A DNA stretch of 64,000 nt from an uncultured Bacteroidia bacterium (GCA_965284645.1 OZ260106.1:342992-406991), one strand, 5' to 3'; positions 12,950 to 52,735 are shown, counted from the stretch's first letter. Program-made: numbers and translations. Notes: generated by a model from the sequence alone, not told the origin.

Positions 12950-13312
12950 TGCCAAAACCTTTTGTGCCAGATTTCCAGATGGTGCTGGGCAAAAGCGTCG
13001 GGCTCTTCACTGCAAGTCCTCGCCCATCCTCCGCTAAGCTTCGGCTGGGCTGTGGGCTTTCCGTTGCGATCCCTCACGCGGGGTGTAGTGCTGGAATTAA
13101 CCCTGATTACTTTCAAATCGGATTGGTACAGTTTGTTTTTTAGCCAAAGCCAGGAGCGGGGTTTCGGGCAAGGATAGAGGCAGTCTAGCCCACAGGGATG
13201 CGGAGGCACGGAGCAGACCGAGGACTAGCGCCGAAAGCCTGACCCGACGCCCTTGCAGACTGCTTAGATTCAGCACCACAGCTGTATTAGGCGGAGGGGG
13301 CCCGCCAAAAAA
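12950..13312 (-). repeat. Family-1 GC-rich palindromic repeat, copy A (well-preserved right arm 13157-13312, degraded left arm about 12950-13090)
   Basis: 13157-13312 is the reverse complement of copy F (52101-52270) at near identity. It contains the core CCCACAGGGATGCGGAGGCACGGAGCAGACCGAGGACTAGCG and the terminus GGGGGCCCGCCAAAA. The left part keeps diverged arm remnants (CCTCGCCCATCCTCCGC..CTGTGGGCT). The small ORFs called here are spurious. Confidence 0.75.
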
Positions 13313-14690: not shown

Positions 14691-15980
14691 ATGACCGAAC
14701 GATTCCTTTTTTATCTCTGGCAATTTCGTCTATTCAACCTAGAAAACCTCAAAACAAGCACCGGCGAAGAGCTCAGCATTATCAAGCCTGGCGAGTTAAA
14801 CAGCCATGCCGGCCCCGACTTCCGAAATGGATTGATTAAGCTAGGACAAACCACCTGGGCAGGCAACATCGAAATCCATATCAATGCCAGCGACTGGAAC
14901 TTACACCAGCATACAGGTGACGAAAATTACGACAATATTATCTTACATGTCGTACTCGACAACGACCGAATCATACTCCGCAAAAACGGAGAACCCATAC
15001 CGACCTTGGAGCTTAAAAACAGAGTAGACTGGAAAATATGGGAAAACTATCGGCAATTGCTGCAATCCAGACAATGGATACCTTGTTCCAATGACTTTGT
15101 CCAGGCCGAACCCCTGGTGTTGAAAATGTGGGTGCAACGGTTGGCTATAAACCGCATAGAACGTAAAGCCGGAGAGATAGAAACCTACCTTAACCTCACC
15201 AAAAACAACCTCGACGAATCCTTCTATTTCCTATTGGCCAAGAATTTCGGGTTCTTTGTTAATTCCCTTCCCTTTGAAATGTTGGCCAAATCCATCCCAC
15301 TCAGCATCATCGGCAAACACCGTTCCACCCTCTTCCAAATCGAAGCCTTGCTGTTTGGACAGGCCGGATTGCTAGAAGAACAGTTGCAAGACACCTATTA
15401 CAATTCTCTGCAAAAAGAGTACGCCTTCTTGCAAAACAAATTCAAGCTTCAAGCCATGCCCGGTCACCTATGGAAATTCCTAAGACTAAGGCCTAGCAAC
15501 TTTCCTACCCTGCGAATAGCCCAATTTGCGGCCTTGCTGCACCAAAACGACCGGATACTATCCCAACTAGCTGAAGCAAGTTCCATACAAACAATCGAAA
15601 GTATCTTCCAAATCCAGCCATCAGATTATTGGCTGACCCATTATCGCTTTGGGAAAGAAGCCCAAACCAAGTCCAAACACCTAGGTGAAACAGCCATTCA
15701 AAGTATACTGATCAATTCGGTAGTCCCAATGCTATTTGAGTTAAATAAAAAGCAGTTGGGACAGCAGTTGCAGGAAAAGGCCATTCAATTTTTGGAAGAG
15801 ACAAAGGCAGAAGACAATTCATTGACAAGAGGATATGAAACCATAGGATTTAAGGCCGAGAATGCCTTGCAAAGTCAGGGATTGATTGAGCTGAAACACA
15901 ACTTTTGCGAAAGGCGAAAATGCCTGGAATGCAGCATCGGGAATCACTTATTGGTGAAAGGAAGGGTGGCCCAAGTTTAA
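14691..15980 (+). CDS. DUF2851-family protein
   Basis: 429 aa. The N-terminus FLFYLWQFRLFN... and the overall size match the Bacteroidetes DUF2851 family. There are no catalytic motifs. It ends ..RRKCLECSIGNHLL (Cys pair). Confidence 0.6.
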   Translation: MTERFLFYLWQFRLFNLENLKTSTGEELSIIKPGELNSHAGPDFRNGLIKLGQTTWAGNIEIHINASDWNLHQHTGDENYDNIILHVVLDNDRIILRKNGEPIPTLELKNRVDWKIWENYRQLLQSRQWIPCSNDFVQAEPLVLKMWVQRLAINRIERKAGEIETYLNLTKNNLDESFYFLLAKNFGFFVNSLPFEMLAKSIPLSIIGKHRSTLFQIEALLFGQAGLLEEQLQDTYYNSLQKEYAFLQNKFKLQAMPGHLWKFLRLRPSNFPTLRIAQFAALLHQNDRILSQLAEASSIQTIESIFQIQPSDYWLTHYRFGKEAQTKSKHLGETAIQSILINSVVPMLFELNKKQLGQQLQEKAIQFLEETKAEDNSLTRGYETIGFKAENALQSQGLIELKHNFCERRKCLECSIGNHLLVKGRVAQV

Positions 15981-16036
15981 AACTTGGGCCTTTGGGGATT
16001 AAAGTCTTAGACTTGAATAATTGAAACCATAATAAA

Positions 16037-16639
16037 ATGAACCATCGATATAAAATCAAAAATAACAATCCGCTTTACATAACCTTTACGGTCACTGGTT
16101 GGATTGATGTATTCACACAAAAAGAACATATTAATATGCTTTTGGAATCTATTGAGTACTGCCAAACCAATAAGGGGCTTAAGCTTTATGCTTGGTGCCT
16201 TTTGCCAAGCCGACTCCATATGATAGTAGATGTAGCTGAACCTTTTCAACTTTGGGAAATTGTCAGGGACCTTAAGAAATTTACAGCAAAAAAATTGGAA
16301 TCTACCTTGCAGGAAGAAACAGAAACGAAAAGAGAATGGCTTCTAGACAAACTCTCCTTCTATGGCAGGTACAATATTAATAACCAGTACTTTAAACTAT
16401 GGCAAGAAGGCTATCGACCGATTGAACTGTATAGTCAAAAATTCTTCTTTCAAAAGCTGGACTTTATCCATTCTATTCCTGTAAAAGAACTAATTGTGAC
16501 AAATCCCTGGGATTACAACCTGAGTAGTGCCAAAAACTATGCAGGGATGGCTGGGCTTTTGCAAGTTCAAATAATTGATCGCGACAATTTGGATAATACT
16601 CCGACTTACGTGAACAATCCGAACGAGGATGAAACTTGA
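16037..16639 (+). mobile_element. IS200-like single-domain HuH/Y1 transposase of the REP-associated (RAYT-like) type, about 200 aa
   Basis: PLYITFTVTGWIDVFT..(beta1)..KGLKLYAWCLLPSRLHMIVD (HuH motif = LHMIV) ...LWQEGYRPIELYSQKFFFQKLDFIHSIPV..YNLSSAKNYAG follows the architecture of the about 190-aa Bacteroidetes IS200-like/RAYT transposase family (Y..FTV.T..W..VF..., KG..I..W..MP.H.HMI, ..FW....H...E.....F..QKL.YIH.NPV). It is a single gene with no IS605 TnpB partner. A degenerate family-2 repeat lies immediately downstream. Confidence 0.8.
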
Positions 16640-16829
16640 AATACTATTTGAAAAGACATAAATTTACCGCATATAGTAAAGTTTGAAAGTGGATTCGGGC
16701 TGCACCAAAGGCAAAGCAAGTAAGTGCTTTCCCCAATTTCGATTTACCCGAAGAAACTATCACTTATCTCGATATTTGGGCCAAATCTTTCCAAGAGTTA
16801 TTGTTTTAAACCTTGCCGCGATTACGAAC

Positions 16830-16995
16830 TAATCAAATTAATAAAGAGGAGATTTAATTATCCGAACTTTCTGATTTTGTTGAGTTCACCCCTACCAAAG
16901 AAATTTCGGTACAGCAGCCGTTTTCGATTTGGCCAAACAATTTGATTTACAACTGGTTAATCGATTATCCATTACTAATTCGTAATCTGGGTCTA
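16830..16995 (-). repeat. Degenerate family-2 AT-rich repeat copy (reverse orientation) just downstream of the RAYT-like gene
   Basis: ATTAATAAAGAGGAGATTTAATTATCCGAACTTTCTGA...CCAAAGAAATTTCGG...TTTGATTTACAACTGGTTAATCGATTATCCATTACTAATTCGTAATCTGGGT aligns to the reverse complement of the family-2 consensus (…TTTACAACTGGTTAATCGTTTATGCATTTCTAATGCGTAATCTGGGTT) with many substitutions and indels. Confidence 0.6.
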
Positions 16996-17045
16996 TAACA
17001 GCCAGTCTAAGACTGGCAAAACCCAAATGACAAGTTAAAAACTTG

Positions 17046-17966
17046 TCATTCCATATACCTACCCCTTTTTATATACAAATGCCTTAAAAAAAACACACTC
17101 AAAACCAATGAAAGTATTACCGCTTTCAATCCATCACCGCTGCCTATTTTCTCTACCGACTGGTCTACAACCTTATGCTGAATCAAATAATAAAGTATTA
17201 CAGCAAAAGAATTGTTAACCGTATGAACCAAAACCGGCACCCAAATGCTGCCACTCCACAACAGCATGTATCCTAAGCCTACTCCTAAAACAAAACGAGG
17301 GAAAAAGCCATAAAACTGCATATGCAACGCGCTAAATAAAAAGGCCGTTAGAAAAATAGCCGCATGTCGATTGCCCAATTGCTTCTCAAACAAAGGCTGC
17401 AAGGTGCCTCGAAACAAAAACTCCTCACCTAGTCCAGCCAATATCCCAATCATAAATACGGTAATCAACAGATCTCCAATTCCTTCCATCTGCAAAAACA
17501 TCTCTATCACCTTCCCGTTTTTTTCCTCTGAATCCTTCATCCATTGCTCAAAACCAAAAGCATCCGGAAAATCCAATGAAGCATTCCACTCCGACATGAA
17601 ATTGATGATTGGCTGCATTGACAGAATAATCATAACACCTAAAGCCAGTTCAATCCATTTGGGTTTGGACAAGGCTCCTTTTACTTCCAATGCATTCCCG
17701 GTCGTTAATTGGGCAAAAAACAAGGAGGGAAGCACAAATCCACCAAGGGCTTGCGAAATTTGAAGAATGCGCAAAGCAGGCTTAGCCATCGGATTGGTAA
17801 GGTCCGACATCAAAACAGAAATATCCAACACGGCTATACCATAGACAAATTTTATTAGCATCAGCCCAATAAAACTCGATACGGAAAGGGAACAGAAACA
17901 AAGGATTAAGAAGGCCAAAAGCTGTAACCAAACAGATTTATTGGCTAAAGGTGGTGTTTGTTCCAT
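17046..17966 (-). CDS. CPBP-family intramembrane glutamic metalloprotease (CAAX-protease-like)
   Basis: 306 aa, polytopic. Shows signature motifs GLGEEFLFRG (EExxxR), FLFSALHMQ (FxxxH) and VLVHTVNN (HxxxN/D). Confidence 0.8.
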   Translation of the reverse strand: MEQTPPLANKSVWLQLLAFLILCFCSLSVSSFIGLMLIKFVYGIAVLDISVLMSDLTNPMAKPALRILQISQALGGFVLPSLFFAQLTTGNALEVKGALSKPKWIELALGVMIILSMQPIINFMSEWNASLDFPDAFGFEQWMKDSEEKNGKVIEMFLQMEGIGDLLITVFMIGILAGLGEEFLFRGTLQPLFEKQLGNRHAAIFLTAFLFSALHMQFYGFFPRFVLGVGLGYMLLWSGSIWVPVLVHTVNNSFAVILYYLIQHKVVDQSVEKIGSGDGLKAVILSLVLSVFFLRHLYIKRGRYME

Positions 17967-21573: not shown

Positions 21574-22082
21574 TTTTTTGGCGGGTCCCTTTTCGGCCAT
21601 AACCATACTACCCCGAATAAACCATTTTCCTGGGCCGAAAAGGTCGCGCTTTCGCTAATACTCCTCGGTCTGCTCCGTGCCTCCGCAGCCCTGTGGGGTA
21701 TCACGCTCTATCGCTACCCGGGGTTCTTCGTGCCCGGTTTTTGGTGAAGTACTGGGCAGTAGTATTCCATGCCGGGGCAATAAATAGGAGGGAAAAAGTA
21801 GTGAGGAAAGAGTAGTGAGAAAATAGAAAATAATACCGAACTACCAATCAAGGACATCCCATAACTCATATCTCATAACTCACTTCTCTTTTCTCTTTCC
21901 TCTCTACTCTTTTCTCTTTCCTCACTTTACCTTCTCCCGTCCGGGTAGGGATAGCAACGGATAGCCCACAGGGATGCGGAGGCACGGAGCAGACCGAGGA
22001 CTAGCAGTGAATAGCCCGACCATGAGCCCAGTATACTGCCAAATCAGCGGAGAATGCTTGTGGCGAATGGGACCCGCCTAAT
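21574..22082. repeat. Family-1 GC-rich palindromic (foldback) element, full-length copy B (about 510 bp)
   Basis: Terminal inverted repeats GGCGGGTCCC (21577) and GGGACCCGCC (22070). The left arm is ..CTCCTCGGTCTGCTCCGTGCCTCCGCAGCCCTGTGGGGTATCACGCTCTATCGCTACCCGG.. and the right arm is its reverse complement (..CCGGGTAGGGATAGCAACGGATAGCCCACAGGGATGCGGAGGCACGGAGCAGACCGAGG..). The AT-rich centre carries inverted AGTAGTGAG / CTCACTACT and CT-rich tracts. Confidence 0.85.
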
Positions 22083-23881: not shown

Positions 23882-24046
23882 CCCAGATTACGCATTAGAA
23901 ATGCATAAAGGATTAACCAGTTGTAAATCAATTTGTATAGCCAAATTGACAACAACTGCTATCCCGAAATTTCTTCGGGAGGGGTAAACCCAACTAAATC
24001 AAGTAGTTCGGATTAATAAATCCTCCTATTGATTAATTTGGGTTTA
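23882..24046 (+). repeat. Family-2 AT-rich about 165-bp MITE-like repeat
   Basis: CCCAGATTACGCATTAGAAATGCATAAAGGATTAACCAGTTGTAAATCAATTTGTATAGCCAAATTGACAACAACTGCTATCCCGAAATTTCTTCGGGAGGGGTAAACCCAACTAAATCAAGTAGTTCGGATTAATAAATCCTCCTATTGATTAATTTGGGTT matches copies at 46012 and 52567 at above 95% identity. The termini are imperfect inverted repeats (AACCCAGATTA..CATTAG / CTATTGATTAATTTGGGTT). Confidence 0.85.
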
Positions 24047-26403: not shown

Positions 26404-26632
26404 GTCTTTAATTTTAAAAGGTTGACGATGCAAATGTGCAACGGTATTTCCAAATAAAAAGACTCTTTTGAACAATATCTTACGCATCCACAACCGCATT
26501 TTTAGAACATTTTTCTCTAATAATACCACAAATCAAGGATTTTAAATTCTCTACTTCTTACGCATAGTTTTATTTGAAAACTGCCGAAAACTTGAAATTA
26601 ACCCCTGATTTTCTGCAAAAACAAACACAATC

Positions 26633-26752
26633 ACCTCAATCCACCCCATTTTCTCACTTCTCTTTTCCCTTTTCTCTCTTCTCTTTTCTCTCTTCTCTTT
26701 TCTCTCTTCTCTTTTCTCTCTTCTCTTTTCTCTCTTCTTCTTTCATTGTTAA
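26633..26752. repeat. CT-rich minisatellite, about 6 tandem copies of a 14-bp unit (CTCTTCTCTTTTCT)
   Basis: TTCTCACTTCTCTTTTCCCTTTTCTCTCTTCTCTTTTCTCTCTTCTCTTTTCTCTCTTCTCTTTTCTCTCTTCTCTTTTCTCTCTTCTTC. It shares the 15-mer CTCACTTCTCTTTTC with the central core of family-1 element B (21884-21898). Confidence 0.85.
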
Positions 26753-30480: not shown

Positions 30481-31015
30481 TTTGGCGGGTCCCTTTTCGG
30501 CCACAACCATACTACCCTGAATAAACTATTTTCCTGGGCCTAAAAGGTCGCGCTTTCGCTAGTACTCCTCGGTCTGCTCCGTGCCTACGCAGCCCTGTGG
30601 GGTACCACGCTCTATCGCTACCCGGGGTTCTTCGTGCCCGGGTGTAGGTGAAGTACGGGGCTGTGGTATTTCATGCCGTGGCAATAAAAATGAGGGAAAT
30701 AGTAGTGAGAAATAAGTAGTGAGAAAATAGAAAATAATACTGAACTACCAATCCAGGATATCCCATAACTCATATCCCATAACTCATATCTCACAACTCA
30801 TATCTCATATCTCATAACCTTCCTCACTACTCTTTTCTCTTTTCTCTTTTCTCACTTTACATTCTTCCGTCCGGGAAGGGATAGAAGCGGATAACCCACA
30901 GGGATGCGTAGGCACGGAGCAGACCGAGGATTAGAAGCGAATAGCCCGGTGCTTTCGCCAGGGTACACTATATTGTCTGGCACTACAGCTAAATGGCGAA
31001 AGCAGCCCGCCAAAT
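30481..31015. repeat. Family-1 GC-rich palindromic (foldback) element, full-length copy C (about 535 bp)
   Basis: TTTGGCGGGTCCCTTTTCGGCCACAACCATACTACCC.. on the left and ..CAGCCCGCCAAA on the right. The arms are CTCCTCGGTCTGCTCCGTGCCTACGCAGCCCTGTGGGGTACCACGCTCTATCGCTACCCGGGG.. and ..CCGGGAAGGGATAGAAGCGGATAACCCACAGGGATGCGTAGGCACGGAGCAGACCGAGG... The AT-rich centre has CCCATAACTCATATC repeats. It is collinear with copy B throughout. Confidence 0.85.
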
Positions 31016-41247: not shown

Positions 41248-41465
41248 TTTTTGGCGGGCCCCCAACCGCCATAACCATTCTACCGCTGTTTAAGCCTTTA
41301 CAAGGGCGGTTGGGTCAGGCTTTCGCTAATACTCCTCAGCCTGTAGCCCCCTAAAATGCATGGGGCTGCAGGCTTGCGGGGTATCACGCTCTATCCTTGC
41401 CCGACACCTCCGCATAACCTTGTACTGAAGCTGGGCCTTTGCATTTCACCCCAGTGTGGTCAAAT
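41248..41465 (+). repeat. Family-1 GC-rich repeat, short copy D (single arm with internal hairpin)
   Basis: TTTTGGCGGGCCCCCAACCGCCATAACCATTCTACC...GGCGGTTGGGTCAGGCTTTCGCTAATACTCCTCAGCCTGTAGCCCCCTAAAATGCATGGGGCTGCAGGCTTGCGGGGTATCACGCTCTATCCTTGCCCGA... The first 120 bp align to copies F and A. The internal inverted repeat is GCCTGTAGCCCC / GGGGCTGCAGGC. Confidence 0.75.
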
Positions 41466-41495: not shown

Positions 41496-41650
41496 ACCCA
41501 AATTAATCAATAGGAGGATTTAATAATCCGAACTACTTGATTTAGTTGGGTTTAACCCGATTTAGCAGTTGTTATCAATTTGGCCATACAAATTGATTTA
41601 CAACTGGTTAATCGTTTACTCATTTCTAATGCGTAATCTGGGATTAACCC
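41496..41650 (-). repeat. Family-2 AT-rich repeat (reverse orientation), first of a tandem pair
   Basis: AACCCAAATTAATCAATAGGAGGATTTAATAATCCGAACTACTTGATTTAGTTGGGTTTAACCCGATTTAGCAGTTGTTATCAATTTGGCCATACAAATTGATTTACAACTGGTTAATCGTTTACTCATTTCTAATGCGTAATCTGGG is the reverse complement of the family-2 consensus. It lacks the CCCGAAATTTCTTCGGG hairpin segment. Confidence 0.8.
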
Positions 41651-41815
41651 AAAATAATCAATAGCAGGATTTAATAATCCGAACTACTTGATTTAGTTGG
41701 GTTTAACCCTCCCGAAGAAATTTTTGGATAGCAGTTTTTATCAATTTGGAAAAAAAATTTATTTACAACTGGTTAACCGTTTATGCATTTCCATTGCATA
41801 ATCTGGGATTAACCC
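41647..41815 (-). repeat. Family-2 AT-rich repeat (reverse orientation), second of a tandem pair sharing the AACCC junction
   Basis: AACCCAAAATAATCAATAGCAGGATTTAATAATCCGAACTACTTGATTTAGTTGGGTTTAACCCTCCCGAAGAAATTTTTGGATAGCAGTTTTTATCAATTTGG...TTTACAACTGGTTAACCGTTTATGCATTTCCATTGCATAATCTGGGATTAACCCC. It overlaps the preceding copy by the 3-4-bp terminal AACC(C). Confidence 0.8.
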
Positions 41816-45934: not shown

Positions 45935-46017
45935 ACCCAGAATCCGCATTAGAATTGCCTAACGATTTTGTAGTTTGAAGTAGTAAATTCTTCTATTGTA
46001 AATTTTAGGTTGAACCC
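45935..46017 (+). repeat. Miniature (about 85-bp) relative of the family-2/3 repeats
   Basis: AACCCAGAATCCGCATTAGAATTGCCTAACGATTTTGTAGTTTGAAGTAGTAAATTCTTCTATTGTAAATTTTAGGTTGAACCC. The ends resemble the shared TIR (AACCCAGA-T-CGCATTAGAA / ..TTAGGTTGAACCC). It sits immediately before a full family-2 copy. Confidence 0.55.
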
Positions 46018-46182
46018 AGATTACGCATTAGAAATGCATAAACGATTAACCAGTTGTAAATCAATTTGTATGGCCAAATTGATAACAACTGCTATCCCGA
46101 AATTTCTTCGGGAGGGGTAAACCCAACTAAATCAAGTAGTTCGGATTAATAAATCCTCCTATTGATTAATTTGGGTTGAAAT
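46012..46182 (+). repeat. Family-2 AT-rich about 170-bp MITE-like repeat
   Basis: It is near-identical to 23882-24046 and 52567-52735 (AACCCAGATTACGCATTAGAAATGCATAAACGATTAACCAGTTGTAAATCAATTTGTATGGCCAAATTGATAACAACTGCTATCCCGAAATTTCTTCGGGAGGGGTAAACCC...CCTCCTATTGATTAATTTGGGTT). Confidence 0.9.
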
Positions 46183-46237
46183 GAAAAACTTCTCTGCAAC
46201 CAGACATGGAAAACTGCAGCCCAATTTACAATTAAAA

Positions 46238-46475
46238 CCCAGGCACGGAGACCATCGGGCAACGATAGAGGCAGTGTAGCCCACAAGGCTGTGCAGGGCG
46301 GCACCATTTGGTAAAACCAGAACAAGGTGTAAAAGTTCATTTACAAAGAAAAAAAGGGAAATGGGTGAGGTGCCGCCCTGCACAGACTGAGGACTACCGC
46401 CGAAAGCGTGACCCGGCCGCCTGGCACACTCTTTTTTTCTTGGTACAATGGTTTTGGGCGGACGGGGGCCCGCCT
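46238..46475 (-). repeat. Family-1 GC-rich repeat, copy E (reverse orientation, about 240 bp, internal hairpin)
   Basis: The right end GGGGGCCCGCCTA is the reverse complement of TAGGCGGGCCCCC. It contains GGACTACCGCCGAAAGCGTGACCCGGCCGCC (cf. copy A GGACTAGCGCCGAAAGCCTGACCCGACGCC) and an internal inverted repeat CTGTGCAGGGCGGCACC / GGTGCCGCCCTGCACAG around an AT-rich loop. It ends about 15 bp before the S41 peptidase ORF boundary. Confidence 0.75.
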
Positions 46476-48221: not shown

Positions 48222-48593
48222 GCAATAGGATTCCGAATGGCGAAAATACAAATTATACCGATGGTATTGGAGAAATAGTCCAATTGTCCATTTAGAGAAT
48301 TAGCCTTAAAATGGCCGATAGTACAAGGGTATAATACCAATTTTAATTTATAAATAGTCCAAAGGCTATTTGTAAATTTAGATTGGTAAATGCCGAGGAT
48401 ACAGTATGTTAGTCCAACTTTTTCTAAAAAATGTGAGCCTAAAATTGGACTGTACATAATGTCCATTCGGTATAATTTCATTTTTCAATAACAAATCATT
48501 GGATAAACTGGGTTTTCTCTTTTTGTGAATTCGGTAAAGAGAACGGTAAAAACGAATGGTTTGGTGCCAAAACTTAAAAATTGACATATTTTA

Positions 48594-48776
48594 ACCCAGA
48601 TTACGCATTAGAAATCGTAATGAAGCTTTCAAATGCAATAAAGACGAGGGTTTCAGGTTAATTTTTGGGTGAAGGAATAGTAAACTATTTTGAAGTCAAA
48701 AATTGTTCTGAAATCCTTGTATTTGAAGCAGTTGAAAGCTGTAATAGATTTCTAATGCTGAATTTGGGTTTAACCC
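48594..48776 (+). repeat. Family-3 AT-rich about 183-bp MITE-like repeat (same TIR as family 2, different interior)
   Basis: AACCCAGATTACGCATTAGAAATCGTAATGAAGCTTTCAAATGCAATAAAGACGAGGGTTTCAGGTTAATTTTTGGGTGAAGGAATAGTAAACTATTTTGAAGTCAAAAATTGTTCTGAAATCCTTGTATTTGAAGCAGTTGAAAGCTGTAATAGATTTCTAATGCTGAATTTGGGTTTAACCC. Shows a perfect-ish TIR ATTTCTAATGC. It is about 96% identical to 52272-52455. Confidence 0.9.
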
Positions 48777-52100: not shown

Positions 52101-52270
52101 TTTATTTTGGCGGGCCCCCAACCGCAAATACCGCTTCCTACGTCTATTATAGTTGGTGCATGGCGGTTGGGTCAGGCTTTCGGCGCTAGTCCTCGGTCTG
52201 CTCCGTTCCTCCGCATCCCTGTGGGCTAGACTGCCTCTATCCTTGCCCGAAGGCCTCCGTGCCCGGCTTT
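52101..52270 (+). repeat. Family-1 GC-rich repeat, short copy F (about 170 bp)
   Basis: TTTTGGCGGGCCCCCAACCGCAAATACCGC...GGCGGTTGGGTCAGGCTTTCGGCGCTAGTCCTCGGTCTGCTCCGTTCCTCCGCATCCCTGTGGGCTAGACTGCCTCTATCCTTGCCCGAAGGCC... It starts exactly at the stop of the upstream gene and is the reverse complement of copy A's right arm. Confidence 0.85.
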
Positions 52271-52271
52271 T

Positions 52272-52455
52272 AACCCAGATTACGCATTAGAAATCGTAAT
52301 GAAGCTTTCAAATGCAATAAAGACGAGGGTTTCAGGTTAATTTTTGGGTGAAGGAATAGTAAACTATTTTGAATGCAAAAATTGTTTTTAAATCCTTGTA
52401 TTTGAAGCAGTTGGAAGCTGTAATAGATTTCTAATGCTGAATCTGGGTTTAACGG
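52272..52455 (+). repeat. Family-3 AT-rich repeat
   Basis: AACCCAGATTACGCATTAGAAATCGTAATGAAGC...ATTTCTAATGCTGAATCTGGGTTTAAC. It is a near-identical copy of 48594-48776 and directly abuts family-1 copy F. Confidence 0.9.
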
Positions 52456-52527: not shown

Positions 52528-52570
52528 AAAAATTGAATAATCCGAACTACTTGAATGGCTTGGTTTAAAC
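52528..52570 (-). repeat. Fragment of a family-2 repeat (reverse orientation)
   Basis: AATAATCCGAACTACTTGA...GGTTTAAACCC is the reverse complement of the TCAAGTAGTTCGGATTATT segment of family 2. It joins the next full copy at AAACCC. Confidence 0.45.
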
Positions 52571-52735
52571 CCAAATTAAGCATTAGAAATGCATAAACGA
52601 TTAACCAGTTGTAAATCAATTTGTATGGCCAAATTGATAACAACTGCTATCCCGAAATTTCTTCGGGAGGGGTAAACCCAACTAAATCAAGTAGTTCGGA
52701 TTAATAAATCCTCCTATTGATTAATTTGGGTTAAA
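52567..52735 (+). repeat. Family-2 AT-rich repeat, ending inside or at the stop codon of the giant adhesin gene
   Basis: AACCCAAATTAAGCATTAGAAATGCATAAACGATTAACCAGTTGTAAATCAATTTGTATGGCCAAATTGATAACAACTGCTATCCCGAAATTTCTTCGGGAGGGGTAAACCC...CCTCCTATTGATTAATTTGGGTTAAAG. The element's last bases overlap the TAA of the 52731..>64000 gene. Confidence 0.9.

Follow-up and report, generated by a model that had tools for sequence, protein, structure and literature searches.

A RAYT-like gene with a degenerate active site, probably unrelated to the IS1380-type miniature elements around it, in an uncultured Bacteroidia bacterium

The closest described systems to the gene analysed here are those of the REP-associated tyrosine transposases (RAYTs; REP, repetitive extragenic palindrome), namely TnpA_REP/RayT (YafM) of Escherichia coli, which occurs together with REPs and bacterial interspersed mosaic elements (BIMEs), and the RAYTs of Pseudomonas with their REPINs (REP doublets forming hairpins; Bertels & Rainey). 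In Bacteroidetes, the relevant group is subclass 2.6 of the TnpA-Y1 transposases, which has a median length of 179 amino acids, the motifs NH[LIV]H, WQ and YIH[QN]NP and a tail with SS, occurs in 1.8 copies per genome on average (41% identity), and is flanked by “atypical secondary structures” (Quentin et al. 2018, BMC Genomics; PMC6006769). Quentin, Siguier, Chandler and Fichant (2018) equate this subclass with Bertels group 5; the subclass label is used here because group 5 of Bertels was analysed in Pseudomonas. A gene of subclass 2.6 is located at positions 16037..16639 (plus strand) of a 64,000-nucleotide stretch of DNA from an uncultured Bacteroidia bacterium (GCA_965284645.1 OZ260106.1:342992-406991; the whole stretch is hereinafter the window). 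The reading that we favour, with a probability of about 0.7, is that this is a resident, active-site-deficient RAYT-like gene with hairpins of its own, and that two families of small repeats scattered over the window (families 2 and 3) are unrelated MITEs (miniature transposable elements with inverted repeats) of the IS1380 type. An earlier sequence-only reading of the locus had proposed that the gene drives these repeats in a REPIN-RAYT-type partnership of a kind poorly described in Bacteroidota; the latter assessment is correct in part, given that the subclass and its flanking structures had already been defined by Quentin et al.

The 200-amino-acid open reading frame (ORF) is present as originally described, and its assignment to RAYT-like rather than IS200-like proteins is borne out by a hidden Markov model search. 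The ORF scores 78.8 bits (E 3.5e-22) against the NCBIfam model REP_Tyr_transpos, 1.2 bits short of the curated cut-off of 80, compared with 16.4 bits against the IS200 model (cut-off 55), and weakly matches the Pfam domain Y1_Tnp (26.2 bits, cut-off 23). A protein search started with the ORF retrieves 111 homologues, nearly all of about 182 amino acids, with matches reaching E 1e-55 or better; the organism-labelled ones come from Bacteroidota without exception, and several sources label them RayT or REP-associated tyrosine transposase. A look-up of the exact protein sequence gave no database record. The consensus motifs of the family in the homologue alignment are NHLHLI, FWQD, YIHxNPV and SSAxNY. 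The KLWQEG and NLSSAKNY segments of the window protein align to invariant columns and represent the WQ motif and the proximal SS tail motif, respectively; compared with subclass 2.6, the protein has a C-terminal extension of 20 amino acids. An AlphaFold (AF2) model derived from the alignment of the family (mean predicted local distance difference test score 80) has as its top PDB match E. coli TnpA_REP in complex with a REP hairpin (4er8, template modelling scores 0.61/0.73), with the IS608, ISDra2 and IS200 transposases ranking below; the similarity is one of fold, sequence identity being only 18-19%.

The window gene thus resembles subclass 2.6 in its host phylum, length (about 180 amino acids is typical), WQ motif, YxxxNP-type helix, SS tail, low copy number, atypical hairpins without GTAG beside the gene, and a best fold match to TnpA_REP. 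It also has the HUH/Y1 fold of the IS200/IS605 TnpA proteins (subclass 1.1) and, like them, hairpins close to the ends of the gene; those proteins, however, have a YxxxQ helix, are multi-copy and are often accompanied by tnpB, whereas the window gene is single-copy and syntenic. The claimed lack of a TnpB partner is confirmed, the neighbours being a DUF2851 gene (14691-15980, plus strand) upstream and a convergent gene for an Rce1-like/CPBP protein (17046-17966, minus strand) downstream. Because of the REP model score, the best structural match to 4er8, the YxxxNP-type motif, the single copy in the window and the absence of tnpB, the gene is a member of the known Bacteroidota RAYT-like clade, TnpA-Y1 subclass 2.6, and not an IS200.

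The active site sets this protein apart. In E. coli TnpA_REP, it consists of Y115, the HuH motif H59-M60-H61, N119, H123 and E161 (PMC3479197). The Bacteroidota family profile aligns to 4er8 such that “hlhli” falls on HMHCI (H59-M60-H61) and “ldYIHeNPvk” on VDY115IYIN119PVK; the profile is required for this alignment, a PDB search with the single sequence yielding only noise. The sequence-only reading took the segment RLHMIVD for the HuH motif and assigned the protein a catalytic tyrosine. Neither is there: the window protein reads S-R-L-H-M-I, with Arg (residue 59) in place of the first histidine where relatives have N/S-H-x-H, and L-D-F-I-H-S-I-P, with Phe (residue 143) at the position of the catalytic Tyr115 (LDFIH compared with xYIH in the family) and Ile (residue 147) at that of the metal ligand N119. 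The Arg and Ile also occur in the two orthologues nearest to the window protein, P0001 and P0002 (93% and 89% identity, respectively), which keep the tyrosine (Y-I-H-S-I-P); all other members of the family have YIHxNP. Among the 111 homologues and 54 further loci, RLH is confined to the window protein and these two orthologues, and Phe to the window protein; all other complete sequences in both sets keep H-x-H and Tyr, bar one cluster with HLN. The window protein therefore differs from subclass 2.6 in having SRLH instead of NH[LIV]H and FIHSIP instead of YIH[QN]NP. Since the first HuH histidine, the Asn ligand and the nucleophilic tyrosine are all replaced, it can, as far as can be judged from sequence, most likely neither cleave DNA nor join it. 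Altogether, the gene descends from the RAYT-like genes of subclass 2.6, with the fold, the WQ and SS motifs, the flanking hairpins and the single copy expected of them, and departs from them in both catalytic motifs. Elsewhere, in a homologue of the family at L114 (4873-5433), a stop-containing insertion of about 20 codons interrupts the gene behind the first beta strand.

Genomic context indicates that the gene is resident at this site. The order PCMT, DUF2851, Y1 gene, Rce1-like gene is found in the contigs of P0001 and P0002, and the order DUF2851, Y1, Rce1-like in the related contigs L001-L003 and L162. In a comparison with the orthologue in L001 (93% identical), the ratio of non-synonymous to synonymous substitution rates (dN/dS) is 0.096 for the whole gene and 0.064 for the first 175 codons, with dS of 0.33; for five neighbouring genes compared in the same way, dN/dS is 0.008-0.10 and dS 0.17-0.41. 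The values for the gene lie inside the ranges of its neighbours, and therefore it has diverged together with them under purifying selection. A tblastn search detects no second copy of the gene within the window. In more distant genera (Pedobacter, Pontibacter and one further genome), the homologue is embedded among different housekeeping genes. In the lineage considered here, the gene is resident, vertically inherited and, within the window, single-copy, which is also how E. coli TnpA_REP and the Pseudomonas RAYTs are organised: a single-copy, vertical Y1 gene with a REPtron layout.

This layout is formed by four hairpins arranged as nested inverted pairs that bound a REPtron-like unit at 15968-17050. 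On the left, the outer hairpin H1 (GGCCCAAGTTTAAAACTTGGGCC, 15968..15990, plus strand; flank fold z -3.75) overlaps the end of the DUF2851 coding sequence (final codons and stop) with its 5' arm and loop, and the inner hairpin H2 (15998..16018, plus strand), also identified by folding, has the core AAGTCTTAGACTT (AAGTC-TTA-GACTT). On the right, the inner hairpin H2' (GCCAGTCTAAGACTGGC, 17001..17017, plus strand; flank fold z -9.96) is inverted relative to H2, and the outer hairpin H1' (AATGACAAGTTAAAAACTTGTCATT, 17026..17050, plus strand), likewise predicted by folding, overlaps the stop codon of the Rce1-like gene. H1 and H1' both contain CAAGTTnAAAACTTG, and H2 and H2' match exactly over the inverted 11-mer AGTCTTAGACT; each of these sequences occurs at only two sites in the 64 kb. 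The hairpins are conserved in L001 amid diverging spacers, H1' being identical there, and in L162 the pairing of H1 is retained by a double change, from GGCCC...GGGCC to GTCCC...GGGAC.

Homologues in Pedobacter (the pairs GGATTTATAATCC and GATTTTTAATC), Pontibacter (GGACATCCATGTCC, four copies) and a third genome (CCCCTCGTTTGGAAACGAGGGG, four copies) are flanked in the same mirrored manner by hairpins that differ in sequence. When 200 nucleotides upstream were compared with 300 nucleotides downstream at the 54 loci with sufficient flank, an inverted exact match of at least 11 nucleotides was present at 42 of them, compared with 2 of 38 when a control region at a distance of 1.2 kb was used. 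In the gene flanks of L082-L161, L004, L079 and L080, from many unrelated metagenomes, two classes of hairpin recur next to subclass 2.6 genes, GGATT-NNN-AATCC (often CGGGATTTGCAATCCCG) and CCCCTCGTT-loop-AACGAGGGG; both are also dispersed near the genes, with 0-7 additional copies in about 12 kb, in agreement with the published description of the subclass. The window differs in this respect. Its hairpins belong to neither the GGATT-N3-AATCC nor the CCCCTCGTT class, the 64 kb contain no GGATT-NNN-AATCC hairpin, and neither H1 nor H2 recurs elsewhere in them, so that the dispersed palindromes of REPIN-RAYT systems are missing from it. E. coli TnpA_REP and the REPIN-RAYT systems differ from the window further in the GTAG foot of their abundant, dispersed REPs or REPINs and in the presence of H59, Y115 and N119. 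A metagenome scan for the 23-nucleotide H1 hairpin gave 0 matches; as it also missed the known orthologous Joint Genome Institute (JGI) contig, this result has no bearing on dispersal.

Small repeats abound in the window, as the sequence-only reading had noted: the end shared by families 2 and 3, CCCAGATTACGCATTAGAAAT, has 11 matches (with up to 3 mismatches) and the core of a GC-rich family 1 has 6, against 0 expected in both cases. The terminal inverted repeat of family 3 is 24 nucleotides long, the first 21 being as in family 2, whereas that of family 2 is shorter (CCCARATTA, about 10 nucleotides). Family 2 is represented by intact 161-nucleotide elements at 23882..24042, 46015..46175 and 52570..52730 (all plus strand), with the duplications TTTAT, TTGAA and TTAAA, respectively, and by two tandem elements of 146 and about 160 nucleotides at 41497..41807 (minus strand) that share the duplication TTAAT; family 3 is represented by 174-nucleotide elements at 48595..48768 and 52274..52447 (both plus strand), each with the duplication TTTAA. 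Hence all 7 of the 7 intact copies in the window are bordered by perfect 5-bp direct duplications, the sequence of which varies from copy to copy. Matched, variable duplications of this kind are the footprint of a staggered cut by a DDE transposase; single-strand transposition by HUH/Y1 enzymes (IS200/IS605) inserts beside a fixed short target and produces no duplication.

A scan for the end motif in one genome per species finds at least 74 stretches, in Flavobacterium, Chitinophagaceae, Sediminibacterium, Saprospiraceae, Pedobacter and others, and more than 30 of the stretches listed contain elements of 52-430 nucleotides with matching 5-bp duplications (TTTAA, TTAAA, TTCAA, TTGAA, TTTAT, GTAAA). 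No full-length insertion sequence (IS) between paired ends was found in the 74 loci, where the long candidates held ordinary genes, and the single informative remnant is in L043: an ORF that runs towards the shared end, with its stop about 6 nucleotides away, matches the C-terminal half of an IS1380-family transposase (NF033539, E 2.8e-29; PF13701, E 1.2e-22). Members of the IS1380 family have ends starting with CC and target duplications of 4-5 bp (ISfinder). For ISEcp1, a member of this family, the end CCTAGATTCTACGT and 5-bp AT-rich duplications have been described (PMC6061673). Families 2 and 3 resemble it in their CC(C/T)AGATT ends, terminal inverted repeats and 5-bp AT-rich duplications, and, like MITE derivatives of IS1380-family elements, have no coding capacity; no autonomous copy was found in the window. 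Given the AT-rich 5-bp duplications, the end shared with an IS1380 transposase remnant and the likeness to ISEcp1, families 2 and 3 are IS1380-derived MITEs. A Rfam scan of the whole window matched no family, and hence none of the repeats is an RNA gene of a known kind.

Copies of families 2 and 3 in the window and in a Sediminibacterium metagenome-assembled genome (MAG) are 96-99% identical in unrelated flanking DNA, which suggests that these MITEs have been active recently; for the copy at 46015..46175, identity to the MAG copy is 97% over 182 nucleotides, and the aligned sequences are identical inside the 161-nucleotide element. Another repeat, of 140 nucleotides, at 48334-48473 is 96% identical to L041 4807-4946 (Sediminibacterium sp. 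MAG) in otherwise unrelated surroundings. Such identity between repeats of the window and the Sediminibacterium MAG suggests a close relative or recent exchange. Contigs assigned to Nitrosopolaris (an archaeon), Nitrospirota and Balneolaceae by binning (L007, L063, L064) likewise contain the exact 21-nucleotide end of the IS1380 type; about 0.3 chance matches are estimated, and if these hits are not due to chance, they could reflect mis-binning or transfer.

One member of family 2 does lie next to the RAYT-like gene, close to where it had been reported (about 190 bp downstream). This copy, at 16832..16991 (minus strand), starts 193 nucleotides past the gene stop and lies just inside H2'; its end motif has 2 mismatches, its far end is degenerate, and there is no recognisable duplication. 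The description of the gene as flanked by a repeat copy thus holds for the downstream side; on the upstream side, the 56-nucleotide gap between the preceding stop and the ATG contains nothing comparable. The flanks themselves hold the different, non-dispersed hairpins described above. In L001, the spacer otherwise aligns and the MITE segment is replaced by 73 unrelated nucleotides; the possibility that these are the remnant of a deleted MITE was rejected, as their similarity to it is no higher than that of shuffled controls. The decayed MITE is an incidental, lineage-specific insertion that lies within the gene unit but does not belong to the system of the gene.

The GC-rich family 1 consists of a unit of about 190 nucleotides with GGGNCCCGCC and then an A-run at its end, present in eight copies at 13110-13306, 21580-22078, 30484-30990, 41253-41420, 46232-46474 and 52109-52305. 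Two inverted pairs of this family enclose a CT-rich microsatellite of 7/14 nucleotides. CT-rich, microsatellite-like tracts of TCTCATAAC / TCTCTTTTC units are located at 21843-21941, 26631-26750 and 30747-30866, of which two fall within the inverted pairs of family 1. The copy nearest to the RAYT-like gene is 2.7 kb away, a single unit gives no fold signal (z -0.5) and no Rfam match, and the copies occupy syntenic sites in L001 and are therefore old and static. Nothing links family 1 to the RAYT-like gene.

Several points weigh against the favoured reading. The Y143F replacement is a single A-to-T change, present in the window sequence only, and could have arisen very recently or through an error in sequencing. 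An altered mechanism in which the Arg takes over is conceivable. H1 and H1' adjoin the 3' ends of the genes on either side and could simply be transcription-termination hairpins. Dispersed H1 or H2 copies, or a second RAYT-like gene, could lie outside the visible 64 kb, as could an autonomous IS1380 element, and the IS1380 link consists of one remnant together with the duplication and end signature, no full-length IS1380 with both ends having been found.

Some of these points recur in the alternative that survives best, under which the protein is an intact RAYT whose Phe143 is a sequencing error and whose Arg59 is tolerated, the hairpins are mere terminators, and the REP population lies outside the 64 kb. 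The tyrosine retained by the close orthologues, the strong purifying selection, the dispersal of family hairpins in relatives (0-7 copies per 12 kb) and the position of H1 and H1' against the neighbouring gene ends are all in its favour. The replacements in RLH and of Asn by Ile, however, are carried by three independent assemblies and thus are not errors. Furthermore, H1, H2 and the usual hairpin class of the family occur nowhere else in the 64 kb, in contrast to several per 12 kb in relatives. With L162 as the outgroup, the window lineage has accumulated 9 non-synonymous and 11 synonymous changes, compared with 0 and 10 in the sister lineage (Fisher p = 0.013; the numbers are small), which hints at looser constraint in the lineage that also lost the tyrosine. 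A scan with a terminator consensus calls none of H1, H2, H2' and H1', although Bacteroidota terminators may not fit that consensus. On balance, we consider an intact RAYT distinctly unlikely.

Far less probable is the arrangement originally proposed, with an active RAYT-like protein mobilising families 2 and 3, or the GC-rich family 1, as REPIN-like partners. The gene is indeed RAYT-like and single-copy, a family-2 copy is located within its 3' spacer, and family-2 elements fold strongly (z -6.45). They also contain an internal GGATT-N4-AATCC hairpin (24010-24023, 41516-41529, 41667-41680, 46143-46156 and 52698-52711) that loosely resembles the GGATT-N3-AATCC hairpins beside subclass 2.6 genes; this likeness is probably a coincidence. 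As a driver of families 2 and 3, however, the gene is contradicted by the perfect, variable 5-bp duplications of every intact copy, which a Y1/HUH enzyme does not make, by the presence of the shared end on an IS1380 transposase remnant, and by the state of the adjacent copy, which is decayed, one-sided and missing from the L001 orthologue. The gene has distinct hairpins of its own, and the catalytic tyrosine, one HuH histidine and the Asn ligand are replaced. Family 1 finds no support as the cognate repeat either, with its distance of never less than 2.7 kb from the gene, its lack of a single-unit fold signal and its static copies at sites syntenic in L001. Equally improbable is an insertion sequence of the ordinary IS200-like kind that is still mobile, with which the Y1_Tnp domain, the inverted hairpins at both ends and the differing genomic contexts of homologues across genera would agree, but not the score of 16 bits against the IS200 cut-off of 55, the single window copy at an identical position in all contigs of close relatives, a dS equal to that of the neighbours, the lost catalytic residues, or the copy number and 41% identity of subclass 2.6, which are unlike those of an IS.

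The favoured reading, of a resident gene with a dismantled active site beside unrelated MITEs, would imply the following course of events. In relatives with an intact site, the protein presumably binds and cuts the flanking hairpins as single-stranded DNA, by analogy with the structure and biochemistry of E. coli TnpA_REP. In the window lineage, the canonical active site is dismantled, with Arg and Ile in all three orthologues and Phe in the window copy only, and the persistence of purifying selection may reflect a non-catalytic role such as hairpin binding. Families 2 and 3 would have been moved in trans by a DDE transposase of the IS1380 family that makes 5-bp AT-rich duplications, and one old copy may have landed by chance in the 3' spacer of the gene. 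A more specific proposal, which we regard as possible but unlikely, is that the small clade of the window gene, P0001 and P0002, which lost the HUH metal site (and, in the window, also the tyrosine) and yet remains under selection, has undergone a second domestication step to a non-catalytic protein that binds hairpins or single-stranded DNA, for example a regulator that acts at the 3' ends of the genes next to it.

The window contains two further repetitive regions. The segment 53300-63000 comprises about 30 tandem units of 228 nucleotides (76 amino acids) with a higher-order period of 912 nucleotides, and is evidently one giant, repetitive, adhesin-like coding region. The segment 7700-8750 is a low-complexity coding repeat (GCxTTxGCxTCxGC...) with 26 overlapping copies that is rich in Ala, Glu and Lys on the opposite strand.

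A REPIN-RAYT partnership in Bacteroidota would have mattered if true; the evidence goes against it at this locus. Before small repeats in the vicinity of a RAYT-like gene are designated REPINs, they should be examined for target-site duplications, and a MITE group present in many Bacteroidota genera is now linked to IS1380-type ends. The gene itself is a member of a RAYT-like clade that is naturally deficient in the active site and subject to purifying selection, and this clade could serve to ask what roles RAYT-like proteins have beyond DNA cutting.

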